A stretch of DNA of 64,000 nucleotides from an uncultured Opitutus sp. (GCA_964480585.1 CAYZPV010000003.1:156412-220411); one strand, 5' to 3'. Numbered from the stretch's first letter, positions 27,381 through 61,571 are shown. Program-made: numbers and translations. The notes: generated from the letters alone by a model not told the origin.

Positions 27381-27397
27381 GCGCGCAGCGAGATTGC

Positions 27398-30402: not shown

Positions 30403-30413
30403 GGGGCGGAGAC

Positions 30414-33650: not shown

Positions 33651-33703
33651 GGAGGGGTTTGCCGGTGAGTTGGCCCCGGCGCTTCCAACCACGAACAGCC
33701 CGC

Positions 33704-33723
33704 GAAAAGTAACTAGGAAAAGT
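33704..33723. promoter_or_regulatory. Direct repeat GAAAAGT-N6-GAAAAGT between fecR and the receptor
   Basis: AT-rich 7-mer at 33704-33710 and 33717-33723, just after the fecR stop and about 55 bp upstream of the receptor start. Confidence 0.3.
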
Positions 33724-39649: not shown

Positions 39650-40939
39650 TCAGACAACGGTGCCCGGCGGCAAAACGGCATTTTTCGCGACGACGAGAAC
39701 GCCATCGCGGACAATCACAAGCCCGTTGGCGTAGGTACCATCGGCCTTGCCGGCGGCGATGAGCACGCAGCCATCGCCGATACGGGTATTTTTATCGATG
39801 ATCGCGCCCTTGATAAGGCAATTTTTCCCCACGCCGAGGTGGGGACGACCCTGCGCGACATTGGCCGCAAGCTGCTCCTCGGTCTCGTAGTAGTCGGAGC
39901 CCATCACGATGGTATCCTCAAGATCGCTGCCCTCGCCAATATAGGAGCGGATGCCGAGCACACAGTGATGGAGCTTGGAATCCGTGATGATGGAGCCGTC
40001 GCCGATGACGACGTGATCTATGGCGCACTTATTGAGCTTGGAAGCAGGGAGGTAGCGATCCTGGGTGTAGATGGGCGCTTGGGGCTCGAAGAAGTTGAAG
40101 GGAGGAAGGGGCTGCGCGAGCGCGAGATTGGCGTCGAAGAAGGCCTTCACCGTGCCGATATCCTCCCAGTACCCCTCGAAAATGTGGGCGTAGAGCTTCT
40201 TCTTGCCGAGGAGGCCGGGGATGACCTCCTTGCCGAAGTCGGTCATCGTATTATCGAGCGCGTCGGCCAGCACCTGGCGGTTGAAGACGTAGATGCCCAT
40301 CGAGGCCAAGCAGTGCTTCTCCTTGGACTCGGTCTGGAGGGTGGCCTGGAGCTGGGGACTGAGAGCGACGCTCTCGATGACGGCAGGATCCTTGGGCTTT
40401 TCGACGAAGCGCGCGATGGAGAGATCGTCGTTGACCGCGGCGAGGCCGAGGCCCTCGACACGGGAAACCGGAAACGGGATCGTGGCGATGGTGACATCCG
40501 CGCCCTTTTCGACGTGCTCGTCGATGATCTTGCGGAAATCCATGCGGTAGAGCTGGTCACCCGAGAGGATCAGTACGAGATCGTGCGGAAACGAACGGAA
40601 GTGTAGCAAGTTGCGGCGTACGGCATCGGCGGTGCCCTGATACCAATCGGAGCCGCGCTCGGTCTGCTCTGCAGCCAAGATATCGACAAAGCCACCACCG
40701 AAGGGGTCGAAGTGATACGTGCTCTGCACGTGGCGGTGCAGGGAGGCAGTCTGGAACTGCGTGAGCAGGAACATCCGGTTGATGTCGCTATTGAGGCAGT
40801 TGCTGATCGGGATATCCACGAGGCGGTATTTGCCCGCGAGGGGTACGGCGGGCTTGCAGCGCTCCAAGGTGAGCGGGTGGAGCCGGGTGCCGCGGCCACC
40901 GCCCATGATCACTGCCAATACGCGTTTCTGAGTCGTCAT
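39650..40939 (-). CDS. glgC: Glucose-1-phosphate adenylyltransferase (ADP-glucose pyrophosphorylase)
   Basis: IMGGGRGTRLHPLT, KPAVPLAGKYRLVDIPISNC, WYQGTADAV, LSGDQLY, FVEKP, ASMGIYVF and YWEDIGT. Confidence 0.95.
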   Translation of the reverse strand: MTTQKRVLAVIMGGGRGTRLHPLTLERCKPAVPLAGKYRLVDIPISNCLNSDINRMFLLTQFQTASLHRHVQSTYHFDPFGGGFVDILAAEQTERGSDWYQGTADAVRRNLLHFRSFPHDLVLILSGDQLYRMDFRKIIDEHVEKGADVTIATIPFPVSRVEGLGLAAVNDDLSIARFVEKPKDPAVIESVALSPQLQATLQTESKEKHCLASMGIYVFNRQVLADALDNTMTDFGKEVIPGLLGKKKLYAHIFEGYWEDIGTVKAFFDANLALAQPLPPFNFFEPQAPIYTQDRYLPASKLNKCAIDHVVIGDGSIITDSKLHHCVLGIRSYIGEGSDLEDTIVMGSDYYETEEQLAANVAQGRPHLGVGKNCLIKGAIIDKNTRIGDGCVLIAAGKADGTYANGLVIVRDGVLVVAKNAVLPPGTVV

Positions 40940-41035: not shown

Positions 41036-41971
41036 ATGGCGAACATTCTTGTGACCGGGGCCGCCGGCTTCATCGGCAGCCACACCACCGACCAACTCCT
41101 TGCCGCAGGCCACCGGGTGGTGGGGGTGGATAATTTTCGGACGGGACGACGCGCCAATCTGGAGGGTGCGCAGCGCTCGAGCGCCTTCAGCTTCCGCGAA
41201 ATGGACGTGGCCGTGCCCGGCGCTCTCGAGGGGGTCGTAGCCGAGGTGGGGCCAGACGCGATCATCCATCTGGCGGCGCTGGTGAGTGTGCAGGACAGCA
41301 TGGAGAATCCGGACCTCAACTATGCGCTCAACATCCAGGCGACGCATCTGGTCGCGGAGGCAGCGCGTAAGGGAAAAGTGCCGCGCATCGTCTTCGCCTC
41401 TTCCGCAGCAATCTTCGGAGATACCACGGACCTGCCTATCCGAGAGAACACCGAGAAGCGCCCGATCAGCCCGTACGGGGCGGCCAAGCTGGCGAGCGAG
41501 GCTATCCTGCTGGGACATGCGGCGGCCTTTGGCTTTGTGGCGCGCTGCCAACGGTACTTCAATGTCTTTGGCCCGCGGCAAGATCCGGCATCGCCGTACT
41601 CGGGCGTGATCTCGATCTTCGATCGCCGCTATCGCGACGGCAAAGGCGTAACCATCTATGGAGATGGCCAACAGACGCGGGACTTCATCTCGGTCCACGA
41701 CGTCGCCCGCGCCAATGTGCTCGCGGCCACGCGCGCCGGGGTGACATCGGGCGCGGCCAACATCTGCACCGGCCGCGCAACCTCGCTGCTGGATATCGTG
41801 GAAATCTTCCGACGCCACTATCCGGCGGCGCCGGCTACGGTACACGCCGCGCCCCGGACGGGCGACATCATCCACTCCCGGGGCGAGCCAACGCTGGCAG
41901 CCGAGGCGCTGGGCTTTCGCGCGGAGGTGACAATCGCGGACGGCCTAGGTGAATTGATCCGTGCGGGATGA
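41036..41971 (+). CDS. pelX: UDP-HexNAc C4-epimerase (SDR), PelX-like
   Basis: VTGAAGFIGS, HLAA, ASSAAIFG, SPYGAAK (YxxxK) and YFNVFGPRQDPASPYSGVISIF. ATGA overlap with pelA. Symbol assigned from context. Confidence 0.75.
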   Translation: MANILVTGAAGFIGSHTTDQLLAAGHRVVGVDNFRTGRRANLEGAQRSSAFSFREMDVAVPGALEGVVAEVGPDAIIHLAALVSVQDSMENPDLNYALNIQATHLVAEAARKGKVPRIVFASSAAIFGDTTDLPIRENTEKRPISPYGAAKLASEAILLGHAAAFGFVARCQRYFNVFGPRQDPASPYSGVISIFDRRYRDGKGVTIYGDGQQTRDFISVHDVARANVLAATRAGVTSGAANICTGRATSLLDIVEIFRRHYPAAPATVHAAPRTGDIIHSRGEPTLAAEALGFRAEVTIADGLGELIRAG

Positions 41972-44829
41972 ATCGACGACTCATCCCGCTCTTAGCAGCC
42001 CTGTTATTCTGTCCCCTGGCGCTTGTCGCGCAGCTGGTCTCGCCGGCACCGGCACCGAGAGCCGAGCCACTGGCGTTTTACGTCAACTACTCCGCCAAAG
42101 TCCCCACGCCGCCACTGTTGGCGCATCCCCTTTCAATCGTCCACCCCGACGCAGAGCTGGATCTCGCCGCCGCGCAGCAGAGCGGGAACAAAGTGCTCGC
42201 CTACCTCAGCGTGGGCGAGGTCGCGCACGACGCGCCGTACCGCGCAGCCATAGTGAGCCGCGGGCTCTCGTTTGCCGGGCGCAATGAAATCTGGAAGTCG
42301 GACATCATCGATCTCAGCGATGCGCGATGGCCCGAATTTCTCGTCGACCAGCTGGCGGCGGGCGCGGCCAAGCGGGGCTTCGATGGATTTTTCCTCGATA
42401 CGCTGGACTCGGTGGAAACCATCGCCCCCGAGCGCAGAGCGGCAGCGGTGGCGGGGCTGGTAACCACGATCCAGCGGCTGCGCCGCACCTTTCCCGCCAA
42501 GCGCATCGTGATCAACCGCGGCTTCTTCGCGTTTGAAGCAGTGAAAGACGCGGTGGATGGCGTGATGGTCGAGTCGCTCTACGAGACACACGACTTTGCG
42601 ACGAAAAGTTACCGCTCCGTGCCGAAAGCTGAGACGGACGCCCTGCTCGCGGCGCTCGCGCCTATCTCTGCCAGTGGACGCTCCGTCTACATCCTAGACT
42701 ATGCCGACCCCAAGCAGCCGGAAGCCGCTGCGACGGCGGCAATGAAGATCCGGGCGCGGGGTTTCCATGCCTTCATCTCGACGCCGGCGCTGGATGGAGA
42801 CATCCTAGGCCCGCTGCGGCCAACGGCACGGCGCATCGCAGCCTTCTACGGAAACCTGACCTCAATCCAGGAGGAGCAGGTCCGCTGGCCAGCGGAGTCT
42901 TTTGTGGGCCAGCGGTTTCAATTGCCGCTGGAGTGGCTCGGCTACGAGGTGGACTACTTCCGCATACAGTCCGCGGCCGACCTGCCCCATCTCGACAGCG
43001 ATCACCGCGCAATCATGCTGCCGCGTTTCCTCGAAATCCCGGTGCATGTGGAGGGAGCATTTATCGACTGGCTGCTCGCGCAGCGAGAGGCGGGCAGGAA
43101 GATCGTGTTTTTCGGGCTGCCGTTTCGCGATCTCGAGCAACAAGCGAGGCTGCTCGCCGCGCTCGGAATCCGAGGCACGGCCAATACGGTGCAGCCGCCG
43201 ATGATCCTGGAGGTGAAAGCGAAGGCGGCGGGCTTTTTCGACTTCGAAGTGCAATCGCCACCGGTGCCGATCGGCCACCGGGACATCCAAGCGCCGCCCG
43301 ATGCGCGGCTGCTCATGGCGGTGGACGCGCGCAGGCCCAACGCACCCGTGGTACGCTTCGACTCGGTATTTACGTGTTCCTGGGGCGGCATGGCTTTCGA
43401 GCCGTACGTGACGTTTCGGCGCCCCGATTTCCGCGAATTCTGGAATCTCGACCCCTTCGCCTTCATCCAGGCGGCGATCGGCGATTTCGACAGCCCGGTG
43501 CCCGATGCGACCACGCGCACAGGCCGACGGATGCTGCTGACGCACATCGACGGGGACGGATTCTCGAATTTCTCCCGCGTGCAGGCGGGCCAGCGTTCGG
43601 CGGAGATCATTCGCGACCGGATACTCAAAAAGTATCCCTATCCCGTCACCGTCTCAATCATCGAAGCGGAGATAAGGGGGCTTATCCGCACCCAGCAGAT
43701 GTCGGAATCGCCAGCGCTGGAAGCGATCGCGCGGGATATCTTCAAGCTCCCCCACGTGGAGCTGGCGTCGCACTCATTTTCGCATCCCTTCTTCTGGATC
43801 GCAGGCGATCGCACCGAGTCGTTTTACGACGAGCAAAACCTGGATTTGAAGGTGCCTTACGACAAACTGGATCTGGCGCGAGAGATCGAGGGGTCGGTGC
43901 GCTATATTAACGAGAAGCTCGCGCCAGCAGACCGACGGGTGAAAGTCTTTCTGTGGACAGGCAACTGCCGCCCGCCGCCCGAGGCGCTCGCGATCGTCCG
44001 CAAGCTCGGCCTCGAGAACCTCAACGGCGGTGACACCATCATCAGCTCGCGCAACCGCACGATCACAGCAGTAGCGCCTCGCACCATGCCATGGGACGAC
44101 GAACTGCAGATCTACGCGCCCAACCAGAACGAGAACGTGTACACCAATAATTGGCGCGGCCCGCTTTTCGGCACGTTCGGGCACGTGATCGAGACCTTCC
44201 AGCTGACAGAGGCACCCCGGCGGCTGAAGCCCATCAACATCTACTATCATTTTTACAGCGGAGACTACCCCTCCTCCCTCAGCGCGCTGGAAAAAATCTA
44301 CGATTGGGTGGGCACCCAGCAGACCCACCCGGTGGAGGTCTCGCACTACGCGCGCATCGCCCGAGACACGCGGGGGACGGAGATCTTCGGGGCCGGGCAC
44401 GAGCGCTGGCTGGTCGTCAATCGCGGCGACTCCCGCACGGTGCGATTGCCAGCCCTTCGCGGAGCGCGAATCGACCTGGCGCGTTCGCGTGGCATCACCG
44501 GCTGGCGCATCGAACACGGCAAAGCCTACGTACATACCGACGGGTCGCCTATCGCCATCGTGGCGCTTGGCAGCGAGCCAAAGGAGCATCTGCGGCTGGA
44601 AAGCGCTTCGGGCGATCTGCAATTCGCGACGCACGGGCCGGCCTCGGCGCGATTCACGGTGGCGACGCCACGCGCCGTGCAGGCGGTCTTCGCGGGCCTG
44701 CCATCCGGAGCCACGGTACGCATCGGAATAGCAGGAAGTACGCGTAGTGAAACAGCGGATACTACGGGCCGCCTCACCCTCGACTTACCCGCGGGGGCGG
44801 ATGTGGATATACAACTCGTCGCGCCATGA
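41968..44829 (+). CDS. pelA: PelA-like bifunctional glycoside hydrolase / carbohydrate deacetylase
   Basis: Signal peptide; hydrolase half AYLSVGE, DGFFLDTLDS, INRGF and VMVESL; deacetylase half THIDGDGF, ASHSFSHPF, LWTGNC, NLNGG, NENVYTNNW and IYYHFYSG; 953 aa. Confidence 0.9.
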   Translation: MNRRLIPLLAALLFCPLALVAQLVSPAPAPRAEPLAFYVNYSAKVPTPPLLAHPLSIVHPDAELDLAAAQQSGNKVLAYLSVGEVAHDAPYRAAIVSRGLSFAGRNEIWKSDIIDLSDARWPEFLVDQLAAGAAKRGFDGFFLDTLDSVETIAPERRAAAVAGLVTTIQRLRRTFPAKRIVINRGFFAFEAVKDAVDGVMVESLYETHDFATKSYRSVPKAETDALLAALAPISASGRSVYILDYADPKQPEAAATAAMKIRARGFHAFISTPALDGDILGPLRPTARRIAAFYGNLTSIQEEQVRWPAESFVGQRFQLPLEWLGYEVDYFRIQSAADLPHLDSDHRAIMLPRFLEIPVHVEGAFIDWLLAQREAGRKIVFFGLPFRDLEQQARLLAALGIRGTANTVQPPMILEVKAKAAGFFDFEVQSPPVPIGHRDIQAPPDARLLMAVDARRPNAPVVRFDSVFTCSWGGMAFEPYVTFRRPDFREFWNLDPFAFIQAAIGDFDSPVPDATTRTGRRMLLTHIDGDGFSNFSRVQAGQRSAEIIRDRILKKYPYPVTVSIIEAEIRGLIRTQQMSESPALEAIARDIFKLPHVELASHSFSHPFFWIAGDRTESFYDEQNLDLKVPYDKLDLAREIEGSVRYINEKLAPADRRVKVFLWTGNCRPPPEALAIVRKLGLENLNGGDTIISSRNRTITAVAPRTMPWDDELQIYAPNQNENVYTNNWRGPLFGTFGHVIETFQLTEAPRRLKPINIYYHFYSGDYPSSLSALEKIYDWVGTQQTHPVEVSHYARIARDTRGTEIFGAGHERWLVVNRGDSRTVRLPALRGARIDLARSRGITGWRIEHGKAYVHTDGSPIAIVALGSEPKEHLRLESASGDLQFATHGPASARFTVATPRAVQAVFAGLPSGATVRIGIAGSTRSETADTTGRLTLDLPAGADVDIQLVAP

Positions 44830-47093
44830 GTTCGCTGCCCAAAATGAAACCGATCCTGCCCTGGTGGCAGCTAGGTCTCCTTTTGGCGCTTTGCGGCCTC
44901 GCGATCTACCAGCTCGTGCCGGACGATCCGCGGCTGATCGATAATCTCATCCGGGATCGCAACCCCCGCGATGCGCGCCGGCAGTTGGAAAAGGTCTCAC
45001 CCGCCAAGCGGGCCAACGACCCCGTGCGGTATTTGCGGCTGGAAGTGGAAATCGCGCGTCTCGAGCTGCGGCCGGATGACCGCGCAGCACTCGACGCGTT
45101 TGCGCGGCGCGGCGTCGCGGCGTGGCGAGAGTCTCGCTACGCGCCATCTATCCTGGCGCTGATCGCGCCTGCGCTCGCGCAGCTCCGCGACCCAGCCGCC
45201 CTCTGGCCCGAGTTCGAGGCCGCGGTGCTAGCCGCACCGGAGAAAGCTCGCGCCATCGCCGGAGAGCGCCTGGCGACGGCGGCCCTCGCCGGCTCCCAAC
45301 CCGCCACGGCCGCGCAGATCTACGCCTCCACGCACCCCGAGGCCACGCGCACGGCGGCCCAGCGCCTTGAAATCGCGCGTTTGCGGCAGCTCGCGGGGCA
45401 GCCCGCTGAAGCGCTGGCGGCGCTCGGCGAAGAGCAGAGCGAAGAGGCACGCGCCCTCCGCTTGTTGCTCCTCCGCGAGCTCAATCGCAATCGCGAGGCG
45501 CTCACACTACTCCTGAGCCGCGCCGCCGCCTCGGCGACGGCTGACGTAAAGCTTGTCGCCGACATCGCCACCGTCGCGCTGCAGGCGGGCGCGCCGGCCG
45601 AAGCTATCCCCGCTGTGCGCAGCCTGCTCGCCGCACAGCCGGACGATGTGGCGACCTGGCGGCAACTGCGCACCCTCCATGTCTCCGCCGGCGATCCTGC
45701 GGGAGCGGTGGAAGCCGCCCAGCGCGCGGCGGCCTTGAGCGAACGCGGGACGGACGACCTCCGTGAGCTGGCGCGAATCCACGAATACGCAGGCCAACCC
45801 GGCCCGGCGTTTGACACCTGGCTGGAGATCGCGCTGCGGAGCGGCGATGTGCCCGCGGTGGAGCGCCTCATCGCGCTCAATCCGGGCCTCTTTCGCGACG
45901 TCGAACTCGCGCGCGCACTCAATCGCGTGGTGCCCCTGCCAGGCCGCGACGACCTCACGCTGCGGCTGGCACGCCTCGAGGTGATGCTCGGCAGCTACGA
46001 CAACGCACGCACGCACTTTGAACAGTACCTGGCCCTGCGGCCGGAGGCGGATGTGATGATCGAATATGCTCACCTGCATCGTGAGCTCTATCGCTTTGGC
46101 GATGCCGAGACCTGGCTCCGACGAGCGGCCGAGCTACGTCCGGATAATCTCGGGCTGCGACGCGAGATCGCCGAATGCCTCGTATATCAGGGCCGCAACA
46201 AGGAGGCGCTGGCGATCTATGCCGAGCTGGCACAGCGCGACCGATCCCCGGAAGTGCTGGATCCCTTCACGCGTCTGGCCGAGACACTGGGCGACTACGA
46301 AGCATTTGCCCGCGCGCTCCGCCAGACGGTGGAGACAGCCACGACTCCGGATGTACGCGACTACAAGATGCTCGCGTATGCGTACGAACTCAACAGCCGC
46401 AGCGATCTCCGCCGAGCGACGCTCGAGGCGGGGCTGAAGGTCTTCCCCAAGGACGACGACCTGCGAATGTCCCTCGCCAGCGCACTCGCCGATGCCCGGC
46501 TGTACCGCGAAGCGCAGAGCACACTCGCGCTCCACACCAAGCTGCGGGAGGATCCTCTCGCGGCGGAGCTCTTCCTCGAACTCATGCGGCTCAACAACGA
46601 CACCGCCGCGGAACGCCGATTTCTGCGGGAGACCTTCTCGCCCGCGGTGCTCGAGGACGAGGATTTCCTGATGCACTCGGCCTATGCATGGGAGGCACTG
46701 CGCGAGTATCCGCGCGCCGAGGCAGTTCACCGCCAGCTCCAGGCGCGCCATCCGGCGAACTTCCAGCACGCCGGAGACCTCGCTCGCATCGCGCTCCTCA
46801 GGGGGCATCCCAAGGAGGCCAAGCAGGTGCTCGCTCCTTTCCTCGCCGCGCCCACTCCTGCCGTGCTCAAACTGGCTGCCGAGATCGCATCGTCCGCGGG
46901 AGATCATCGCAACGCCGAGAAATACCAGGCCGCTTATCTTTCCGCGATGCGCAACGCCTCCGCGACCGACTGGGGCGCACTGGGCGACATACGGCTCTCC
47001 CGGGGCGACCGCATCGGCGCCAAGCGCGCTTACGCGGAGGCGCTCCGCCGGATGCACGCGGAACTCGGCACAAACAAAGGAGGTGGGCGATGA
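44826..47093 (+). CDS. pelB: PelB-like TPR scaffold (N-terminal part only, no barrel)
   Basis: N-terminal hydrophobic anchor (PWWQLGLLLALCGLAIYQL), then ~700 aa of Ala/Leu/Arg/Glu-rich helical repeats. Occupies the pelB position; ATGA overlap with pelA. Confidence 0.7.
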   Translation: MSSLPKMKPILPWWQLGLLLALCGLAIYQLVPDDPRLIDNLIRDRNPRDARRQLEKVSPAKRANDPVRYLRLEVEIARLELRPDDRAALDAFARRGVAAWRESRYAPSILALIAPALAQLRDPAALWPEFEAAVLAAPEKARAIAGERLATAALAGSQPATAAQIYASTHPEATRTAAQRLEIARLRQLAGQPAEALAALGEEQSEEARALRLLLLRELNRNREALTLLLSRAAASATADVKLVADIATVALQAGAPAEAIPAVRSLLAAQPDDVATWRQLRTLHVSAGDPAGAVEAAQRAAALSERGTDDLRELARIHEYAGQPGPAFDTWLEIALRSGDVPAVERLIALNPGLFRDVELARALNRVVPLPGRDDLTLRLARLEVMLGSYDNARTHFEQYLALRPEADVMIEYAHLHRELYRFGDAETWLRRAAELRPDNLGLRREIAECLVYQGRNKEALAIYAELAQRDRSPEVLDPFTRLAETLGDYEAFARALRQTVETATTPDVRDYKMLAYAYELNSRSDLRRATLEAGLKVFPKDDDLRMSLASALADARLYREAQSTLALHTKLREDPLAAELFLELMRLNNDTAAERRFLRETFSPAVLEDEDFLMHSAYAWEALREYPRAEAVHRQLQARHPANFQHAGDLARIALLRGHPKEAKQVLAPFLAAPTPAVLKLAAEIASSAGDHRNAEKYQAAYLSAMRNASATDWGALGDIRLSRGDRIGAKRAYAEALRRMHAELGTNKGGGR

Positions 47094-48607
47094 AGCGCTT
47101 GCTTCTGGGCGCCCTGCTGCTCTCGGCCGCCTACGTGCCGATCCCTGCTGCCGAGCCAGCCGGATTCCTGCCCGACGCGGAGATCCTCTCGCGCGCGCCC
47201 ACGCTCGGAATCGAGGAGCAGCGGTATCTGGTGTATCTGTATGCCCGGCTCAACAAGCCGAAGGTGGCCGAGGCGATCGCCGAGCAGATCCTGAAGACCA
47301 ATCCCAGCGATCGACAGACGCTGCTCGTATTGGCCTCGATGTACGTGGAGCAAAAGGATCCGAAGGCCGTGCTGCGCACCGCGCGCGCGTTTCTCAAATT
47401 TTATCCCTCCGACCACCAAGGACTCTACTTTCTAGGCGCAGGCCACTATCTCGCCAAGGAATACGCCATCGCCAACGAGGTGCTGCGGAGCCTCAAGCAA
47501 ACGCAATTCGCAGGGAATCTGTATCCCTACGAAACCGACCTCGCCGCCTCCGCCTACGCGGCGGGCGACTGGCACCGCGCGATGCTCTCCTACCAGGAAC
47601 TGCTACGCCATCATAAGCTCGGCGATCAACTCCGCGACGAGGTACGCCGCACGTTGGACGAGCTCTATCGCGCGCATCTCCCGCGGCTGGACCTGACGGC
47701 ATCGAGGGTGCGGCTGGAACGCGCCGAGGCATGGCGCTATGGAGCCTCCCACGGCATGCACATCAGCGGTCGCCACTGGCTCGACGTACGCTATGGACGC
47801 GACGACGTGGACCTCGAGGCCGCGCCAGGACTGCAAGCCACGCGTGCCGATCGGCAGGAAGTCTCCGCCAGCCTTTCCACCGTGTACGATCGCCGCCTGC
47901 GCACCGAATTGTGGGCTGGAGCGTTTGGCGAAGGAGCTTTTGGCGGGGGGCGTGCGACGGTGACGTTTGCCCGCCAACGCGAGGCATTTGTGGAGGTCGT
48001 CCTCAACGCACGCTCGACCGATAGCCTCACCCTTGAGGCTCTCGACGGCCGCCAGCACTCCGTGGGCTTGGGACTCAACTGGCTGGTCGAGGCCGACCTG
48101 AATCTAGCCATGCGTGCCCAGACCAGGGAAGTCCGCGTCGAGGGCATACGCCTCGGCCGTGGATCTAGCCTCGACATCAACTTCGACTACACCGTCTGGC
48201 GACAAGGGCCGCGCATCACGGCGGGCTACCGGGGATCGATGGGGCAGTTTACACCAGACACTGGTTTCGACGCGCGCCTTACAGGCCCGCTGGTCGACCC
48301 GGCGGCCGGCTTGCTTGGCCAGCAGACCATCGTGTCCAATCTCGTCAGCCAGGCAATCAACCGGCACGGAGTAGGACTCACCCTCACCGACAATCTCGCC
48401 GATGCGTGGATCTACCGCGTGACCGCGGGCACTGACTACGACTTCGAGCTTTCTTCCGTGGGCTGGAATGGCTCGCTAGCGCTCACCTTTCTCCCGCGCA
48501 AGAGCATCGAGATCACGGCCGAGGCCGGCTACACCTCCAGCGCTTCGGCTAGCAATGCCGGCTCCTCCGCGACGCTTTTCAACTTCTACATTCGCGCCTA
48601 TCACTAA
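47090..48607 (+). CDS. Secreted TPR + outer-membrane beta-barrel protein (PelB C-terminal-like porin)
   Basis: ATG 47090 with SD AAGGAGGTG and its own signal peptide MKRLLLGALLLSAAYVPIPAA. ~4 TPR-like repeats, then ~310 aa of amphipathic beta strands ending LFNFYIRAYH. Confidence 0.7.
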   Translation: MKRLLLGALLLSAAYVPIPAAEPAGFLPDAEILSRAPTLGIEEQRYLVYLYARLNKPKVAEAIAEQILKTNPSDRQTLLVLASMYVEQKDPKAVLRTARAFLKFYPSDHQGLYFLGAGHYLAKEYAIANEVLRSLKQTQFAGNLYPYETDLAASAYAAGDWHRAMLSYQELLRHHKLGDQLRDEVRRTLDELYRAHLPRLDLTASRVRLERAEAWRYGASHGMHISGRHWLDVRYGRDDVDLEAAPGLQATRADRQEVSASLSTVYDRRLRTELWAGAFGEGAFGGGRATVTFARQREAFVEVVLNARSTDSLTLEALDGRQHSVGLGLNWLVEADLNLAMRAQTREVRVEGIRLGRGSSLDINFDYTVWRQGPRITAGYRGSMGQFTPDTGFDARLTGPLVDPAAGLLGQQTIVSNLVSQAINRHGVGLTLTDNLADAWIYRVTAGTDYDFELSSVGWNGSLALTFLPRKSIEITAEAGYTSSASASNAGSSATLFNFYIRAYH

Positions 48608-48620
48608 ATCCACCCTCACC

Positions 48621-49169
48621 ATGAGCCGACTCCTCGTACTCCTTGCCACGCTGCTTTTCAGCACTGGCTGCGCCACCGTGGTCCATCAGGGCAACCAGAG
48701 CCCTCACGCACACGCCGTCACGCGTGTGCTGCTGCCACCCTTCTTCAACGCGACGGACGACGAGCACGCGAGCCGCGCGCTCACCGAGATGACTGGCAGC
48801 GCCCTCGTGGAAGCGGGCATACCGCTCTTCCAGACGGAGGAGACTCTTCTGAAATCCGCCGCAGACAAGGCCCAAGGGCCGGATGGCCGCTACGCCGAAC
48901 TGGCGCGCCAGATGGGCGTCTCGCATCTGGTAATCGGCACCGTGCACGAGTACCGCTACAAGACCGATCTCGATGGCGACCCCGCAGTCGGCATCACGCT
49001 CCGGCTCGTCGATGCGGCCACCGGCCAGACACTCTGGCAGGGTTCGAGCGGCAACGTAGGCTATGCCTTTGCGTCGCTCACCTCGGCAAGCCAGAAGGCC
49101 GTGAACGCGCTCGTGACCGACCTACCGGTCGCCGGCAATAAATTTTGGCGCACGCGCACGAGGAAGTAA
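48621..49169 (+). CDS. pelC: PelC-like outer-membrane lipoprotein
   Basis: Lipobox LFSTGC, LLPPFFN, and GTVHEYRYKTDLDGDPAVGITLRLVD..TGQTLW. Start set at ATG 48621. Confidence 0.85.
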   Translation: MSRLLVLLATLLFSTGCATVVHQGNQSPHAHAVTRVLLPPFFNATDDEHASRALTEMTGSALVEAGIPLFQTEETLLKSAADKAQGPDGRYAELARQMGVSHLVIGTVHEYRYKTDLDGDPAVGITLRLVDAATGQTLWQGSSGNVGYAFASLTSASQKAVNALVTDLPVAGNKFWRTRTRK

Positions 49170-49208
49170 GCAATCCAGACCCGCGTTATCCGCCTTAGGC
49201 CTGCCGCG

Positions 49209-50561
49209 ATGAACGTCCAAGACGCCCTCAAGCCCAAATCCATCCTGCTCGACGCCGCCCTGATCGGCGGCCTGCTGGTCGGGCTCAACGCGCTCTTCGA
49301 CCGCAGCCAACTCGGCTGGACGAATTTCAATCCTTCGCCGTACCTCCTACTCCCGCTGTTGATCGGAGGCCGCTACGGCTTCACTGCGGGGCTCTTATCA
49401 GGCGTTGGCACGAGCCTCGTGGTGCTGGCGCTGCAGAGCTTCGGAGGGGCGGGCTCGCCCAGCGCAGCCCTCGCACAAGCCCCCTATCTGCACGCGAGCT
49501 TTCTCTTTCTCGGCGGGATCGCGGGAGAGCTCTACGGGTGGTTTCGCCGCGAACGGGCGCAAGCTGCCGCGCAGCTCGAAAAGCTTCAGACCTCGGTGCG
49601 CCGTTTGGATGCCGATGTCAGTTACCTGCGCGGGGTGAAGGATGAGCTCGACCGCGCGGTTGCCGCCCGCGACGGCGAGGTGAGCACGCTCGACGCGGAG
49701 TTGCGGCGCTTGTACGCCGCATCCCGCGAAGACCTGCCTTCGGCTACGCTCGCCTTTCTCCGCCGCCAAGTCCGCCTCACCGACGCGGCGCTTTACGCCA
49801 TCCCCTCCGGCGAGGGTGCATTGACGCGGCTCGCGCTCATCGGTCGCGACAATCATCTGCCTGAGTCCCTCGGCCGCAAGGCCAGCGCGGTGGTGCGGCT
49901 GGCAATCGAGCGATCTTCGCTGGTAACGCTGCCCGAGCTGCTCCAGCAGCGAGAACCCTCCTGCGAAGATCCCATCCTGCTCGCGGCGCCGCTGCGCGAC
50001 GCCGCGGGCAAAACTCTGGCCGTGCTCGTCGTCTCGGGGATGCCCTTTATTTCCTTCACCGCGCAGACCGGAAATCTGATCTCGCTAATCTGCGGTTGGG
50101 CGGGAGAAGTGCTCGACCTCGCTTCCGGAGCGGGCCCAGGCCGCTATCGCATCGTCGCTGGCCGCGACCTTCAGCGCATCTTCACGCGCGAGCATTTCCG
50201 CCATCTGCTCCAGCTGGCATTTGAGGCAAACAAGGGGCACCGCCTGCCGTCGTCGATCGTCGTCTTTTCCCTGCCCGGCGTCAGCCCGCGCGAACAGGCG
50301 CGCTTCGAAGGTGTGATCGCGAGCGCCATTCGCGCCGGCGACTATGCCGCCGAGCTTGGCCACAGTCACCCGCACCTCGCGGTGCTGCTGCCCCTCGTGG
50401 GCGAACGCGGAGCGAGCATCTTCATCGAACGCTGCCGGCAGTTTGTGCGCCAGAGCGGACCATGGCCAAGCGAACTCGACGTGCGCCGGGTGGAGATAGG
50501 CCGTGTCACCGATGTCGAGGCGATCCTTGCCGAGCTCGACGGCGCAAGCTCCAAGGCATGA
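49209..50561 (+). CDS. pelD: PelD-like c-di-GMP receptor: TM + GAF + degenerate GGDEF
   Basis: PYLLLPLLIGGRYG in the TM region, a coiled coil, a GAF-like segment, RxxD I-site (IRAGD), LAVLLPL...FIER, and no GGDEF motif. Confidence 0.8.
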   Translation: MNVQDALKPKSILLDAALIGGLLVGLNALFDRSQLGWTNFNPSPYLLLPLLIGGRYGFTAGLLSGVGTSLVVLALQSFGGAGSPSAALAQAPYLHASFLFLGGIAGELYGWFRRERAQAAAQLEKLQTSVRRLDADVSYLRGVKDELDRAVAARDGEVSTLDAELRRLYAASREDLPSATLAFLRRQVRLTDAALYAIPSGEGALTRLALIGRDNHLPESLGRKASAVVRLAIERSSLVTLPELLQQREPSCEDPILLAAPLRDAAGKTLAVLVVSGMPFISFTAQTGNLISLICGWAGEVLDLASGAGPGRYRIVAGRDLQRIFTREHFRHLLQLAFEANKGHRLPSSIVVFSLPGVSPREQARFEGVIASAIRAGDYAAELGHSHPHLAVLLPLVGERGASIFIERCRQFVRQSGPWPSELDVRRVEIGRVTDVEAILAELDGASSKA

Positions 50562-51556
50562 GCGATAGCACACGCATTTCACGCCTCCAGCCGGTGCTGC
50601 TCGTGGTGGCATTCATGCTACAGGCGATCTCGCTGCCGCTGCTGTTTCGCGAGGGTCTGCTGCCTTGGGCATTTCTCGCGCACGCGGCGGGCGCGGTCGC
50701 CTGGGGCTTAGGAGCAGCCCGACTCTTCCCTCGGGGACAGCGTCCGGCGTGGTGGCAGTCGGGCGCATGGGCGCTGACGTTTCCAGTGGTGGGGCCGCTC
50801 GCCTCGCTGTGCTTCGCGTCGATCCTTCGCCGTCCGCCAGTCGACAACAGTGGGCAGCGCTACGTCGTATGGAACGAGCAACCCGCAGGCGCGTGGGATA
50901 ACGCGCTGCCTGCGGGAGCCTCAGGGCAATCAATCGTGGAGATACTCCAGAGCCCGCGCACTCAACTACGGCGCAATGCCGTGCTGGCGCTGCGTGAACT
51001 CGATCCGCAGCTCGCGATCCCGCTCCTCCGGAAAGGCCTCCAGGATAGCGACGAACAGGTGCGCATCTACGCGCAGAATATCCTGAGCACGATGCTGGAG
51101 CGGTTTGAAGAAGGCATCAAGCAACTCGAAAACCGCATCGCCTCGGGACAGGGCGACGCAGCAACAGCCACCCGGCTCGCCGAGCAGTATTTCGAACTTG
51201 TCTACCTCGACGTCGCAGGGGACGACGAGACCGCCGCCCACTATCTCGCCAAGGCGCTTGCGCTGCTCGAAAAGGCCTTTGGCGCCGCGCCCGACGACCC
51301 TGCGATCGTGTTTCTCGGTTTCAAATATGCGCTGCGCGCCCGCGATGCGGGCGCCGCACGCCTCTGGCTGGAGCGGCTCGAACAACGCAAGTCAGACGCG
51401 CAACAAGTCCTCCCCTGGCGGATGGAGCTGGCCTTCCTCGAGGGCGACTGGAAGCGGCTCCGGGCGCTCTTTGAGGAGTTTGCCCGAGCCCGCTACATCA
51501 ACCCACGCATCGAGGAGCTGTCCCGCTTCTGGCTCGGCGCACCCGCTTCGGCATGA
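50558..51556 (+). CDS. pelE: PelE-like membrane protein with HEAT/TPR region
   Basis: N-terminal TMs (LTFPVVGPL), LLRKGLQDSDEQVRIYA, and a helical C-terminus. ATGA overlaps on both sides. Confidence 0.8.
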   Translation: MSDSTRISRLQPVLLVVAFMLQAISLPLLFREGLLPWAFLAHAAGAVAWGLGAARLFPRGQRPAWWQSGAWALTFPVVGPLASLCFASILRRPPVDNSGQRYVVWNEQPAGAWDNALPAGASGQSIVEILQSPRTQLRRNAVLALRELDPQLAIPLLRKGLQDSDEQVRIYAQNILSTMLERFEEGIKQLENRIASGQGDAATATRLAEQYFELVYLDVAGDDETAAHYLAKALALLEKAFGAAPDDPAIVFLGFKYALRARDAGAARLWLERLEQRKSDAQQVLPWRMELAFLEGDWKRLRALFEEFARARYINPRIEELSRFWLGAPASA

Positions 51557-53133
51557 GCACGCCCGACGCCAAGATCGCCGATGTCTGCCTGATCCTGGAG
51601 GGCACCTATCCCTACGTGCAAGGCGGCGTCTCCTCCTGGGTCCACCAGATCGTCACTGAACTGCCCGAGGTCACGTTTGCGCTTTTCTTCCTGGGCAGCA
51701 CTCGCGAGCAGGCGAAGCAGAAGCGTTATACACCGCCGGCCAACGTCATTTCGCTCACGGAGGTTTTTCTTTTCGAGAAGCTGCCCCCGGATCAGCTCAT
51801 ACCTGCGCCCCTGCGGCGCGAGCACAAGGATGCGCTCTACACCGTGCTGCGCGATTTCTACCTCGCGCAGGACGACGCGGAGCGGCAGGCGGTATTTCTC
51901 AAGGTGATCGATACCCTCGACATCATCGAGGCCACGGGCAGCCCGGTGACTTTCGGCAATTTCCTCCGCGATGAAGAGGCGTGGATGCTGCTGACGGAGG
52001 CGGCGGAAAAATTCGCCGCCGAGGAATCTTTCATCGATTTTTTCTGGGCCGCGCGCTTCGTGCACCTGCCGGTGTGGATCGCTCTGTCGCATCGTAAGGA
52101 GATCCCCCCTGCTCGCGCGTACCACAGCGTTTCCACCGGGTACGCAGGCATGCTCGGTGCGATCGCCTCACGCTATCACCGTGCGCCCTATCTCATCACT
52201 GAACACGGCATCTACACGAAGGAACGCATCGCCGAGATCAGCCAGGCGAGCTGGATCTACGATCCGCCAAGCAAGTACTTCGACGTGCGAGAGGGCATGG
52301 GCGTCTTCAAACAGCTTTGGATCGATCTCTTCATGTTCCTCGGGCAGGTCTCGTATGCGAGCGCGCAGCGCATCGTCTCGCTCTTCGAGGGCAACACATA
52401 CCTCCAGATTGAGTTTGGCGCCGAGGCACGCCGGTTGGAAGTCATCCCCAACGGCATCGACCCGAGCAAATTCGACCCGGCGCTGCAAACGCGCACCGCG
52501 CGCCTCTCTGCGGGGCTCGGTGAGGAGATTGTGATCGGCTTTGTCGGTCGCGTCGTGCCGATCAAGGATGTAAAGACGCTCATTCGAGCGGCGCGCACCG
52601 TCGTGGCGCGCGAACCGCGCGCTGTTTTTCACCTCATCGGGCCGACGGAGGAAGACCCGGACTACTTCGAAGAGTGCAAGCAGATGGTGACTCTAATGGG
52701 TCTCGAGAAGAAGGTGCTATTCCTCGGACCGAGGAATATTCGCGAGATCCTCTCCAGCGTCGACGTATGCCTGCTCACCAGTATCAGCGAAGGGCTGCCG
52801 TTGATCATCCTCGAAGCGTTCGCCGCAGGCATCCCATGCGTGGCCACCGATGTAGGTGCGTGCCGAGAACTCATCTTCGGCCGTACTCCTGAGGACAAGG
52901 CAATCGGGCGGGCCGGGCTCCTTACCAAGATCTGCTCTCCGCTCGACACTGCCGACGCCGTGCTGCGCGTGATTTCCAGTGCCGATCACCTCCTCCGAAT
53001 GGGCCAGGCCGGTCGCACCCGCGCCGAACGCCACTACCGCCAATCGGAGATCATGGGGAAGTACCGCTCATTTTACACCGATCATGGCTGGGCACAACTC
53101 CCCTCGCCCGCCGATCAACCCACCGCACCCTAA
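51553..53133 (+). CDS. pelF: PelF-like GT4 glycosyltransferase
   Basis: DVCLILEGTYPYVQGGVSSW, HSVSTGYAG, TEHGIYTKER, VIPNGID, GRVVPIKDVKT, and SISEGLPLIILE (EX7E). Confidence 0.92.
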   Translation: MSTPDAKIADVCLILEGTYPYVQGGVSSWVHQIVTELPEVTFALFFLGSTREQAKQKRYTPPANVISLTEVFLFEKLPPDQLIPAPLRREHKDALYTVLRDFYLAQDDAERQAVFLKVIDTLDIIEATGSPVTFGNFLRDEEAWMLLTEAAEKFAAEESFIDFFWAARFVHLPVWIALSHRKEIPPARAYHSVSTGYAGMLGAIASRYHRAPYLITEHGIYTKERIAEISQASWIYDPPSKYFDVREGMGVFKQLWIDLFMFLGQVSYASAQRIVSLFEGNTYLQIEFGAEARRLEVIPNGIDPSKFDPALQTRTARLSAGLGEEIVIGFVGRVVPIKDVKTLIRAARTVVAREPRAVFHLIGPTEEDPDYFEECKQMVTLMGLEKKVLFLGPRNIREILSSVDVCLLTSISEGLPLIILEAFAAGIPCVATDVGACRELIFGRTPEDKAIGRAGLLTKICSPLDTADAVLRVISSADHLLRMGQAGRTRAERHYRQSEIMGKYRSFYTDHGWAQLPSPADQPTAP

Positions 53134-54512
53134 TGGCCGGCATCGGATTTCAACTCACGAAACTCATGGCCAAGCGCACCTTCGCCGGTGGCTTGCAGGC
53201 CTACGGTTTCGCGGCGCTCATCGGAAGCGGCCCGTGGGTGCTCTCGATGGTCACGCTCGCGCTGCTGGGCCTCGTGGTCAATCGCACTGGGGCAGCCAGG
53301 GAACTCGATCTGTTCTTTGTGGCGGTGACGCACATCTTCGGCTTCTCGCTCATACTCACCGGTCCGCTCCAACTGCTGCTCTCCCGCTTTGCGGCCGATG
53401 CCGTCTACGAGCGCAAACCGGAGCAGGTATTCCCCTCCTTCCTTGGCGGGCTCGCGCTCTCGCTCGCGGCCAACGCGATCTTCGGCGTCGTGTTCTTCTT
53501 CGGCTTCGTCCCGGCCGCGCCGCTCTTCCAATTCTCCGCCACCGGCGTGTTGATGATCGTATCCGCGATCTGGATAGGCGCCATCTACCTTACGGCGGTG
53601 CGGGACTACACCGCAGTCATAAAGTGCTTCCTGCTCGGCTACGCCGTGAGCTTCGGGGCTGGCTGGGGGCTCACCCTGCCACTCGGAGTCGCAGGCACGA
53701 TGGCGGGCTTTCTCCTCGGCCAAGTCGTGCTGCTGCTCGCCATGATCCGCGTCGTGTACCGTGAGTACGGCACGCATGGCGCGCCGAGTTTCGCGTTTCT
53801 CCGCTATTTCAAGCGGCACTCATCTCTCGCTGCCTGCGGCCTGGTTTACAATCTAGGTATCTGGATCGACAAGCCGCTCCACTGGTGGCTCTCCCCGCAC
53901 GGCCACCAAGTGGCGGGCGCACTCTGGGCCTCGCCGCTCTACGATCAGGCGGTGTTTCTGAGCTTCCTCTCAGTCGCTCCGGGCATGGCCGTTTTCCTCC
54001 TCACGCTGGAGACGACATTTGCCGATCGCTACTCGGAGTTTTTCCGGCTCGTTGTGGCCAAGGGGAAGCTGCGCGAGATACTCGCGACCAAGGCGGAGAT
54101 GGTGGAGGCCCTGCGCGATGGCCTGTCGAGGCTGCTGAAATTTCAAGGCGGCGTCACCCTCGCGCTCATCCTGAGCGCCGATCACTTGCTAGCTGCACTG
54201 GGGCTCGGCGCCGTGCAGACGATCGTGTTTCAAGTCACGCTCGTCGGCGTCTGCCTCCTAGTGCTTTTCCTGGCCCTTCTCACCGTACTCTTCTATCTGG
54301 ACCGCCTGCGCGAGGCATTGTGGTGCTGCGGACTCTTTGCCGTACTCAATCTGATGGTGACTGTAGCCGGCTTGATGGCTGACGAACGTTGGTACGGCCT
54401 GGGCTTCACCGTGGCCGCCGGCGCCGGTGCGCTGCTGGCAGGCGCACTCTCCAACCGCGCGCTGCGGCGGTTGGAATACGAAACTTTTACCGCGCAACCG
54501 CTCTACTCTTGA
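53133..54512 (+). CDS. pelG: PelG-like polysaccharide transporter / polymerase-associated membrane protein
   Basis: Characteristic MAGIGFQL start, GPWVLS, YNLGIWIDK, YDQAVFLSFLSVAPG, LETTFADRY and LFYLD; ~12 TMs; TAATG overlap. Confidence 0.92.
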   Translation: MAGIGFQLTKLMAKRTFAGGLQAYGFAALIGSGPWVLSMVTLALLGLVVNRTGAARELDLFFVAVTHIFGFSLILTGPLQLLLSRFAADAVYERKPEQVFPSFLGGLALSLAANAIFGVVFFFGFVPAAPLFQFSATGVLMIVSAIWIGAIYLTAVRDYTAVIKCFLLGYAVSFGAGWGLTLPLGVAGTMAGFLLGQVVLLLAMIRVVYREYGTHGAPSFAFLRYFKRHSSLAACGLVYNLGIWIDKPLHWWLSPHGHQVAGALWASPLYDQAVFLSFLSVAPGMAVFLLTLETTFADRYSEFFRLVVAKGKLREILATKAEMVEALRDGLSRLLKFQGGVTLALILSADHLLAALGLGAVQTIVFQVTLVGVCLLVLFLALLTVLFYLDRLREALWCCGLFAVLNLMVTVAGLMADERWYGLGFTVAAGAGALLAGALSNRALRRLEYETFTAQPLYS

Positions 54513-54579
54513 GAAACCGCCAATCGTTTTCGTAGACTAAATATTCGCGTCCTTCATCCTTTAATCCCCTTCCCCCACC

Positions 54580-56433
54580 ATGTGCGGCATCGTCGGCTAC
54601 GTCGGTAAACAGAAAGCAGCTCCCCTGATCCTCGAGGGCCTCAAGCGCCTAGAGTACCGCGGCTACGACTCCGCCGGGGTGACCATCCTGCAGGAGGGTC
54701 GCTTCGATCTCGTGAAAAAGATCGGCCGCGTCGCCAACCTCGAAAAAGAGCCTGCAACGCACAAGCTAAACGGAAGCTATGGCATGGGCCACACTCGCTG
54801 GGCGACTCATGGCGGTGTGACGGATGCCAACGCCCATCCCCATATCAGCAGCGACGGCCAGATCGCACTGATCCATAACGGCGTGATCGAGAACTACTCG
54901 AAGATCAAAAAATTCCTGCTCGAAAAGGGCTATACCTTCAAGTCGGAGACCGACACTGAGGTGCTCTGCAATCTCATCGCCTACCACTACTCCAAGGAGC
55001 CCGCAGCGCAGAATGGGGACAGCCGTTTCGTATCCAGCGTGCGGAAGGCCCTCCTCCATGCGGAGGGCACCTATGGCATCGTCGTGATGGCGCTCGATGC
55101 GCCGGGCGAGCTCGTCACTGCCCGGAAAGGCTCGCCGCTCATCCTTGGACTTGGCGATGGAGAAAGCCTCGTCGCCTCCGATGTGGCGGCGATCGTGAGT
55201 CGCACGCAGAACGTCGTCTACCTGAAAGATGGCGAGATCGCGCACCTCACGCCAAAGAACTTTTCGATCACGACACTCAACTCCGAAGCCGTGAGCGCGG
55301 TGGTGGACAAGGTCACCTGGTCCATCGCCGACGCAGAACTTGGCGGCTACGCGCACTTCATGGAGAAAGAGATCTTTGAGCAGCCCGTAGCGCTGGAAAA
55401 TGCGATGCGTGGGCGCTTCTCCGAAGACGGGAGCACCGCGCAATTTGGCGGCCTCAATATCGCGCCCGGCGAATTTCGCGGCATCGAGCGCTTCATGTTC
55501 TGCGCCTGCGGCACCGCGCTGCACGCATGCATGGTGACGGAGCACATGATCGAACGCTTCGCGCGCATACCGGTGGAGTGCGACTACGCCTCCGAGTTCC
55601 GCTATCGCAACTCCCCGCTGCACCGCAACACGCTCTTCTTCGTAATGAGCCAGTCGGGCGAGACAATCGATACCCTGGCCGCCCTCCGCGAGGCCAAGCG
55701 CAAGGGCTACAAGGTGCTTGCGGTGAACAATGTCGTGGGATCCACGATCGCCCGCGAAGCCGATGGCGGCATCTACCAGCATGTCGGCCCGGAGGTCGGT
55801 GTCGCCTCCACCAAGGCCTTCACCTCGCAGGTGCTGATCGGGGCGATGCTGGCGCTCTACATCGGCCGTATGCGCGATCTCAGTTTCGGCGCCGGAGTGC
55901 GCTACGTCGCCGCGCTCAAGGGCGCACCGGATCTCGTGCGCAAGGCGCTGGAGCAGGCACCGCATATCAAGGCCATCGCGAAGCGCTATGCGCACTACAC
56001 CGATATGCTTTTCCTCGGCCGCCTCTCGCTCTTCCCCATCGCGCTAGAGGGCGCGCTCAAGCTAAAGGAGATCTCCTACATCCACGCCGAGGGGTACCCT
56101 GCTGCGGAAATGAAGCACGGGCCCATAGCGCTCGTGAGCGAAAAGTGCCCGGCCGTCTTTCTCGCCCCCAGCGGCGAGATCCTCAACAAAATCGTCTCTT
56201 CGATGCAGGAGATCAAAGCTCGGAAGGGCCCCGTAATCGCAATCGTCACCGAGAATGTGGAACTGCCCGCTGGTCTGGCAGACGAGACCATCGTGGTGCC
56301 CGAATGTCACGAGGCTGTGCTGCCCATCGTGATGTCGATCCCGGTGCAGCTCCTCAGTTACTACATCGCCGTCGAACGCGGCTGCGACGTCGACAAGCCC
56401 CGAAATCTCGCGAAGTCCGTCACGGTGGAATGA
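54580..56433 (+). CDS. glmS: Glutamine--fructose-6-phosphate aminotransferase
   Basis: MCGIVGY, LEYRGYDSAG, GHTRWATHG, SQSGETIDT, GVASTKAFT, EGALKLKEISYIHAEGY and PRNLAKSVTVE. Confidence 0.97.
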   Translation: MCGIVGYVGKQKAAPLILEGLKRLEYRGYDSAGVTILQEGRFDLVKKIGRVANLEKEPATHKLNGSYGMGHTRWATHGGVTDANAHPHISSDGQIALIHNGVIENYSKIKKFLLEKGYTFKSETDTEVLCNLIAYHYSKEPAAQNGDSRFVSSVRKALLHAEGTYGIVVMALDAPGELVTARKGSPLILGLGDGESLVASDVAAIVSRTQNVVYLKDGEIAHLTPKNFSITTLNSEAVSAVVDKVTWSIADAELGGYAHFMEKEIFEQPVALENAMRGRFSEDGSTAQFGGLNIAPGEFRGIERFMFCACGTALHACMVTEHMIERFARIPVECDYASEFRYRNSPLHRNTLFFVMSQSGETIDTLAALREAKRKGYKVLAVNNVVGSTIAREADGGIYQHVGPEVGVASTKAFTSQVLIGAMLALYIGRMRDLSFGAGVRYVAALKGAPDLVRKALEQAPHIKAIAKRYAHYTDMLFLGRLSLFPIALEGALKLKEISYIHAEGYPAAEMKHGPIALVSEKCPAVFLAPSGEILNKIVSSMQEIKARKGPVIAIVTENVELPAGLADETIVVPECHEAVLPIVMSIPVQLLSYYIAVERGCDVDKPRNLAKSVTVE

Positions 56434-60205: not shown

Positions 60206-60209
60206 GCGC

Positions 60210-61379: not shown

Positions 61380-61571
61380 GATCGGGAAAAAGACGAAGCG
61401 GAGCACGGAGCGTTCCGCCAAAACGAAGTTGGCTACCGATTTCCGCTTTTTACCGGAAGGCAACTGCGCACAACCCAAAAAAGCGACTTCCCTCCTTGCT
61501 CGGCGACAAACGAGATTGGGATCGCCCCTAGCCAACGGAGAAACATCGTGTAGGGGCTCCCGCAGCCCTCC

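Follow-up and report, generated by a model that had tools for sequence, protein, structure and literature searches.

A complete pel cluster is encoded on the plus strand of a 64,000-nucleotide stretch of DNA from an uncultured Opitutus sp. (GCA_964480585.1 CAYZPV010000003.1:156412-220411), which was analysed as a whole and is referred to here as the window. The cluster extends from 41036 to 56433 in the order epimerase, pelA, B1, B2, pelC, pelD, pelE, pelF, pelG and glmS, so that the place of pelB, which encodes the exporter of the biofilm sugar Pel, between pelA and pelC of a pelABCDEFG cluster, is taken by two genes, here named B1 and B2. B1 encodes the N-terminal half of PelB, consisting of tetratricopeptide repeats (TPRs) behind a hydrophobic N-terminus, and B2 the C-terminal half, consisting of a signal peptide, a few TPRs and a beta-barrel (Table 1). 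The matches obtained for PelA, PelC, PelF and PelG confirm that the surrounding genes are genuine Pel components: the pelA product aligned with Pseudomonas aeruginosa PelA (9cgy_A) over residues 59-905 (E 1.2e-116) and the pelC product with P. aeruginosa PelC (9h80_C) over its full length (E 2.2e-19).

The junction between B1 and B2

The two open reading frames (ORFs) meet in an ATGA in which the start codon of B2 (47090-47092) overlaps the stop codon of B1 (47091-47093), an arrangement indicative of translational coupling. Six nucleotides ahead of the B2 ATG lies the GGAGG of a Shine-Dalgarno (SD)-like sequence, AAAGGAGGTG, which is embedded in codons of the non-conserved B1 tail. A preliminary description of this DNA had proposed two ORFs of 755 and 505 aa joined by ATGA coupling and an SD, and all of these elements were found as described. 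A longer reading in the B2 frame, starting at 46175, was rejected, as it consists of off-frame, Arg/Pro/Gly-rich sequence without homologue support.

Contigs assembled from seven sequencing runs (X1, X2, X3, X4, X10, X19 and X26), which belong to six studies coded P1, P2, P3, P4, P10 and P13, span the junction and revealed substitutions only, with 0 inserted or deleted letters. The corresponding samples comprised bioreactor, activated-sludge and watershed metagenomes as well as one run labelled as a single organism and one unlabelled run. A check for co-transcription in one probable RNA run yielded a single 280-nt contig inside B2 (47130-47407), which does not reach the junction.

Conservation of the split and the fused relative

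Related loci (L001-L008 and others) were reached by exact-protein look-ups. Six of them (L001, L002, L003, L004, L006 and L007) show the order pelA-B1-B2-pelC, with a TPR protein of 628-766 aa and a barrel protein of 485-536 aa between pelA and pelC. The two genes overlap by 4 nt in L001, L004, L006 and L007, and thus in five of seven loci when the window is included, while gaps of 26 nt and 68 nt separate them in L002 and L003, respectively. An SD ahead of B2 is present in L006 and L007 and not evident in L001-L004; the earlier statement that B2 has an SD of its own therefore holds for the window but not as a conserved trait of the relatives.

At the protein level, about 40 homologues of B1 (741-776 aa) and 73 homologues of B2 were collected, the latter ranging from 99% down to 36% identity and measuring about 480-570 aa when full-length. 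When 1.84 billion representatives were searched with a profile of B2, 638 matches were obtained, and the best ~60 of these are almost all short forms. All taxon names given by the sources are Verrucomicrobiota, and the species names, Oleiharenicola lentus and Synoicihabitans (Actomonas) lomoniglobus, belong to Opitutaceae. In a large clade of pel operons, whose taxon-named members are all Verrucomicrobiota, the split pelB is inherited and represents the normal condition. The preliminary description had suggested looking for the split in orthologous operons, and it was present in every related operon inspected except one.

This exception, L005, carries a single pelB gene (L005:10001-13720) for a 1239-aa protein, P0117, between pelA and pelC and is syntenic with the window, sharing its pel genes as well as glgC on the upstream and glmS on the downstream side. 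Apart from P0117, no genuine PelB fusion was found in the clade. B1 aligns to its residues 1-751 with 39% identity and residues 32-505 of B2 to its residues 764-1239 with 53% identity; because both align end to end on P0117, B1 and B2 represent collinear halves of a full-length PelB, and the alignment indicates that the C-terminus of B1 and the N-terminus of mature B2 could sit only about 12 residues apart. The N-terminus of B1 is retained in the fused protein, and the segments missing from it are precisely the signal peptide of B2 and the tail of B1, which is not conserved. P0117 was placed inside a clade bounded by split Opitutaceae sequences in 60 of 60 bootstraps when the B2-equivalent region was analysed by neighbour joining. 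As it nests within the split clade, the fusion in L005 looks secondary, which suggests a re-fusion accompanied by loss of the signal peptide.

A second candidate for a fused PelB, the 1278-aa P0155 from a Verrucomicrobiae metagenome-assembled genome (L008), was rejected because it keeps the internal SD, ATG and signal peptide. When one G of a G7 run at L008:10226-10232 is deleted, the upstream ORF ends in ARDAYGRALKQVLKELPAP followed by a stop codon, in ATGA overlap with a B2 gene bearing a signal peptide. The occurrence of a 1307-aa cluster member in another assembly suggests that the additional G either exists or stems from a systematic error.

Could the two genes of the window likewise be the product of a sequencing or assembly frameshift, or of a recent pseudogenising mutation of a single pelB? 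Frameshifts do occur in the family, as the extra G behind the fused appearance of P0155 illustrates, and one relative, L005, has a truly fused gene. Against this explanation, however, the junction is free of insertions and deletions in seven assemblies, B2 carries its own start codon, SD and signal peptide, and all of the approximately 110 homologues of B1 and B2 are half-length. Moreover, the split recurs in six further loci with differing intergenic structures, and a junction that varies between a 4-nt overlap and gaps of 26 and 68 nt cannot be explained by one frameshift. The alternative is thus effectively refuted, and the split of pelB into two translationally coupled genes is genuine, in agreement with the preliminary description, which had argued against an artefact. 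That description had named fused relatives combined with an insertion or deletion at this position, or a second protein that fails to model as a barrel, as observations that would speak against the split; what we found instead is an intact junction, a fused gene nested within the split clade and a B2 model with a 16-strand barrel.

Domain structure of the two halves

Pfam assigned B1 to TPR families only. The AlphaFold2 (AF2) model of B1, built with 18 homologues (mean predicted local distance difference test (pLDDT) score 91.0), comprises a helix at residues 13-30, a low-confidence hinge and 43 helices between residues 35 and 749, which form an all-alpha solenoid of about 21 TPR-like helix pairs. 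Its N-terminus contains an uncharged stretch of 24 residues with K6 and K8 before it and D33 and D34 after it, shows no obvious A-x-A site and, unlike the B2 signal peptide, is conserved in sequence throughout the family (KPILPWWQLxLLL..C..G.Y.LLPDDP). As the stretch is long, preceded by K/R, followed by DD and conserved, it is best read as a putative uncleaved anchor that would leave the N-terminus in the cytoplasm. Conservation peaks at the opposite end, where residues 721-740 reach the highest mean majority fraction (0.81) among all 20-residue blocks of B1 and adjoin the fusion joint in P0117, while block 341-360 is among the more conserved ones. In the 515-aa B1 homologue P0111 the C-terminal part becomes Ser/Arg/Thr-rich, and this sequence probably stems from a further frameshift in a gene called on a metagenome assembly.

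For B2, Pfam recognised TPR_14 (residues 42-83) and PF24604, the 'PelB C-terminal beta barrel' (residues 219-460; 39.8 bits, cut-off 31). In the AF2 model (22 homologues; mean pLDDT 90.2), residues 1-24 are disordered, and the stalk helix that follows the TPR-like helices runs straight into strand 1 of the barrel. The N-terminus, MKRLLLGALLLSAAYVPIPAA followed by E, combines an n-region with K2 and R3, a hydrophobic core of 13 residues and a PIPAA c-region, and by our own reading of the -3/-1 rule the signal peptide would be cleaved near A20/A21. K/R followed by a hydrophobic core, scored heuristically, was found at the N-terminus of 61 of the 67 full-length family members, and the signal-peptide block is the least conserved one in B2 (0.36), as expected for a cleaved signal peptide. 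The helices at residues 41-200 are highly conserved, with maxima in block 41-60 (0.82), which covers the first TPR helix, and block 161-180 (0.81). The last residue of nearly all B2 homologues (72/73) is Y, H or F, in keeping with the C-terminal signal of an outer-membrane protein.

A Foldseek comparison of the B2 model returned P. aeruginosa PelB from the PelBC cryo-EM structure (9h80_M) as top match (E 6e-20, TMt 0.75), followed by BcsC (9b8a, E 5.5e-18), with AlgE entries ranked 36th or lower. Comparison at the level of fold was needed to reach PelB, because PDB sequence searches with B2 alone and with a profile of 22 B2 sequences (phmmer, hmmsearch) gave only generic TPR proteins and did not find PelB, from which the sequence has diverged too far. 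The description of the second protein as a few TPRs and a barrel is thereby upheld, and so, by the heuristics used here, is the assignment of a separate targeting signal to each half, a hydrophobic N-terminus in B1 and a signal peptide in B2.

Some B2-type proteins are larger. P0137 (921 aa), P0140 (963 aa) and P0142 (809 aa) bear a Pro/Ala-rich N-terminal extension of 320-480 residues, which in P0140 and P0142 contains repeats of the motif DAGDAGYII(I/L/V)G that P0137 lacks; one cluster member of these extended proteins is named as Verrucomicrobiota. Among more distant homologues of the PelB barrel, L011:642-5616 encodes a TPR protein of 726 aa and, directly after it, a TPR-barrel protein of 911 aa, and L010:8001-15666 a 784-aa PelB-like TPR-barrel protein in a pelD/E/F/G-like cluster that has no adjacent pelA or pelC. 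There are also lineages with PelB-like porins of just ~650-935 aa.

Comparison with known export systems

PelB of P. aeruginosa (PA3063, 1193 aa; PelBC cryo-EM 9h80) is encoded in the same operon position between pelA and pelC and shows the same order of parts as B1 and B2 taken together (1260 aa), namely an apolar N-terminal helix, a long TPR solenoid, a stalk helix and a 16-strand barrel. PelB is usually quoted with 19 TPRs, compared with about 26 helix pairs in B1 plus B2. The two-gene PelB shares every tested PelB feature, including the position in the cluster, the PelB-type C-terminal barrel and the solenoid and stalk ahead of it, which are spread over B1 and B2, except for the single polypeptide. 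Here, in contrast, PelB consists of two chains, and the C-terminal piece has gained its own predicted cleavable signal peptide.

Structural work on the P. aeruginosa protein has described an uncleaved apolar N-terminus of 22 residues that may sit in the inner membrane, a TPR scaffold long enough to span the periplasm and a barrel of 16 strands on which a dodecameric ring of PelC forms a cap (PMC12141448). An N-terminal anchor is thus already a property of canonical PelB, and the novelty that the preliminary description had implied for it falls away. PelA binds the TPR region at residues 332-436, and a fragment comprising residues 762-1193, with three TPRs and the barrel, reaches the outer membrane behind a foreign signal peptide and co-purifies with PelC, which the barrel by itself fails to do, since stalk helix and TPRs are required (PMC12141448). 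This construct has nearly the same design as the natural B2 (signal peptide, few TPRs, stalk helix and barrel), although it is an engineered truncation without a partner for the remaining TPRs, while B2 has about five helix pairs instead of three and is always encoded with B1. By an estimate from domain lengths only, the equivalent break in P. aeruginosa PelB would lie at about residue 700-730. With both halves collinear on a full-length PelB that joins them by ~12 linker residues, the proposed 'different export architecture' is too strong a term, and the system is better described as the same architecture minus one peptide bond. The suggested suitability for a wide periplasm likewise finds no support in the present results.

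Fission of pelB as such is not new. A survey of pel operons mentions 'pelB fission' in aquatic thermophilic species in the legend of its Fig 5iii (Bundalovic-Torma et al. 2020, PMC7112194). That event is of the same kind, with pelB present as more than one gene, but it appears in a figure legend only, concerns other taxa and is listed along with locus gain and rearrangement, without break point, targeting signals or clade-wide conservation; the word Verrucomicrobia is absent from the paper. Our literature search turned up no account of this clade, the break point or separate targeting signals.

The synthase-dependent alginate system likewise separates a TPR scaffold, AlgK, from an outer-membrane porin, AlgE. 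There, the scaffold is a lipoprotein of the outer membrane and the porin an 18-strand barrel devoid of TPRs, whereas B1 looks inner-membrane-anchored, with no lipobox Cys conserved in its family, and about 170 residues of TPR-like helices precede the 16 strands of B2; B1 and B2 are therefore not an AlgK/AlgE-type pair. BcsC (cellulose) and PgaA (poly-N-acetylglucosamine) resemble B1 plus B2 in combining a TPR solenoid with a 16-strand barrel, but they are single polypeptides from a different operon context and lack a PelC-type ring.

Proposed assembly of a two-piece PelB

Taken together, the explanation that we consider probable is that the two coupled genes provide an inner-membrane-anchored B1 rail and an outer-membrane B2 porin, which stack into a PelB conduit. 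B1 would enter the inner membrane via its uncleaved N-terminal helix, with the N-terminus in the cytoplasm, and its solenoid would project into the periplasm, carrying most of the TPR rail and probably the binding site for PelA. B2 would be exported by Sec with its cleavable signal peptide and insert into the outer membrane as a barrel, while its five TPR-like pairs and stalk helix (residues 29-196), proposed here as candidate binding site for both the PelC ring and B1, would hang in the periplasm and nucleate the ring of PelC lipoproteins. The C-terminal TPR/helix pair of B1 could then stack non-covalently on the first helix pair of mature B2 and thereby rebuild a continuous conduit along which PelA-processed Pel would travel to the pore. 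Docking of B1 on B2 is proposed because a fused orthologue exists, because the genes are strictly adjacent and frequently overlap, and because the abutting ends are the most conserved blocks. A more far-reaching version, in which a two-piece PelB is ancestral and near-universal in Verrucomicrobiota and B1 and B2 assemble reversibly in the periplasm, so that covalent continuity is unneeded and assembly offers a possible control point, is put forward as a tentative idea that we would not yet favour.

Several considerations weigh against this picture of a stacked conduit. The fused orthologue, gene adjacency and conservation are an indirect basis for the predicted B1-B2 contact, and the conservation of the B2 N-terminal region could reflect binding of PelC instead of docking of B1. 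What ties B1 to PelB is the fused orthologue and gene order, as a fold search with the B1 model returned generic eukaryotic TPR solenoids only (Ctr9, Ski3, IFT-A and OGT) and was uninformative on PelB ancestry. The distinction between anchor and cleaved signal in B1 and B2 was drawn with simple hydropathy and conservation heuristics, and B1 may be lipidated in some species, given the lipobox-like Cys discussed below. In addition, the junction was checked on assembler contigs, which lose rare variants, in place of raw reads, and the Pel system of this clade is known from its genes alone, with production of Pel presumed from them.

Of the competing explanations, one assumes that B1 and B2 work undocked, with B1 acting as an inner-membrane scaffold for PelA, and perhaps for PelD/E/G, while the polymer reaches B2 and PelC by diffusion or along the TPRs of B2. 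This would fit the resemblance of B2 to the P. aeruginosa fragment that needs no further part of PelB to assemble with PelC in the outer membrane, and also the short PelB-like porins of other lineages, among them the one in the pelDEFG cluster of L010, which has no adjacent TPR protein. The joint of about 12 residues in the fused orthologue, however, indicates that the two ends can be adjacent, conservation in each protein is highest in the block at the abutting end, and the genes are strictly neighbouring with a frequent 4-nt overlap, so that we regard undocked operation as unlikely.

Clearly less probable still is a reading of B1 as a lipoprotein or as a TPR protein that is cleaved and soluble in the periplasm, which would make B1 and B2 an AlgK/AlgE-like pair. 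In many B1 homologues, a Cys some 23 residues into the protein does stand in a lipobox-like context (LAAC, LGAC, LIAC), and the TPR protein of the alginate system is a separate lipoprotein. B1 as a lipoprotein was nevertheless rejected, as the Cys is not conserved, being absent from at least six homologues (P0093, P0101, P0102, P0104, P0105 and P0109). Moreover, the -1 residue in the window is Leu, the hydrophobic stretch runs about eight residues beyond the Cys, the sequence of the entire segment is conserved in the manner of a functional helix, and the same N-terminus is shared by the fused P0117 and canonical PelB. The stacked B1-B2 conduit thus remains the explanation that we prefer.

Gene neighbourhood

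The coordinates of the pel cluster and of the features within B1 and B2 are compiled in Table 1.

Table 1 Genes and sequence features of the pel cluster in the window.
Feature	Position	Strand	Basis and remarks
SDR sugar-nucleotide 4-epimerase/dehydratase-family gene, first in cluster	41036..41971	+	PF01370 Epimerase, E 8.5e-61; best NCBIfam match GalE, under its cut-off
pelA, 953 aa, GH114 hydrolase region and remainder of PelA	41968..44829	+	PF03537 GH114
B1, pelB N-terminal half, 755 aa	44826..47093	+	ORF, translation, TPR Pfam matches, AF2, homologues
B1 residues 13-30, predicted transmembrane (signal-anchor) helix	44862..44915	+	Hydropathy, conservation, AF2; putative topology
B1 residues 721-740 (DIRLSRGDRIGAKRAYAEAL), in last helix pair, proposed docking end	46986..47045	+	Top-conserved B1 block; putative docking
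Shine-Dalgarno-like AAAGGAGGTG	47076..47085	+	Within non-conserved B1 tail codons; read from sequence
ATGA, B2 start overlapping B1 stop (translational coupling)	47090..47093	+	Start and stop codons
B2, pelB C-terminal half, 505 aa	47090..48607	+	ORF, translation, Pfam, homologues, AF2, Foldseek
B2 residues 1-21, predicted Sec-type signal peptide	47090..47152	+	n-, h- and c-regions; homologue pattern; low pLDDT; absent from fused P0117
B2 residues 29-196, ten helices at 29-174 (~5 TPR-like pairs) and stalk helix at 179-196	47174..47677	+	AF2
B2 residues 199-504, 16-strand outer-membrane beta-barrel	47684..48601	+	AF2 strands; PF24604
pelC, 182-aa lipoprotein	48621..49169	+	Start moved to ATG at 48621; MSRLLVLLATLLFSTGC with lipobox (LFSTGC)
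pelD-like gene, 450 aa	49209..50561	+	GAF_3 under Pfam cut-off; position and size as in all related operons
pelE-like gene	50462..51556	+	HEAT_2/TPR-like matches; orthologous position
pelF, glycosyltransferase	51553..53133	+	NF038011 PelF, E 4e-154
pelG	53133..54512	+	PF16933 PelG, E 2.9e-128
glmS, directly 3' of pelG	54580..56433	+	TIGR01135, E 2.8e-228

A counterpart of the epimerase-family gene lies upstream of pelA in L002, L003 and L006, and its product may have a PelX-like role. In L005, too, the gene table places glmS after pelG; together, glmS and the 4-epimerase-family gene flanking the cluster suggest a dedicated supply of amino-sugar precursors. The longest ORF of the pelE-like gene overlaps the end of pelD by 100 nt (50462-50561), and as the PelE proteins of relatives are shorter (298-368 aa), the real start is probably downstream of 50462.

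Upstream of the cluster lie glgC (39650-40939, minus strand) and a gene for a 1038-aa histidine kinase (36388-39504), with no response-regulator, PAS or GGDEF gene adjoining there. Genes for response-regulator/PAS/GGDEF diguanylate cyclases occur in or beside the pel clusters of relatives (L003:2247-4454, L002:17509-18408 and L004:1-1050), which is consistent with control by cyclic di-GMP in these loci. Farther upstream, three consecutive sulfatase genes beside a gene for a 1436-aa TonB-dependent receptor with CarboxypepD_reg (25917-34724, minus strand) look like a cluster for the utilisation of sulfated polysaccharides. Directly downstream of glmS, the minus strand encodes an AcrB-family RND transporter (1071 aa) and an HlyD-family membrane-fusion protein (56990-61535).

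Implications for Pel export

The two-gene PelB is a conserved, incremental variant of a known system. In the source names, B1 and B2 are currently labelled just 'tetratricopeptide repeat protein' or 'hypothetical protein', and because of these generic labels, pelB may be recorded as missing from Verrucomicrobiota pel operons of sludge, soil and water. The natural break falls near the cut that experimenters chose to obtain an outer-membrane module that assembles, and marks a natural boundary between domains that structural work can use. The 2025 PelBC paper explicitly raises the open question of how PelB combines an anchor in the inner membrane with a barrel in the outer membrane, and a lineage that makes the two ends of PelB separately suggests that an unbroken chain may not be required. 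The clade therefore represents a natural experiment that asks whether the envelope has to be crossed by an uninterrupted PelB and, if the two-piece reading is true, would provide a direct test of membrane bridging.

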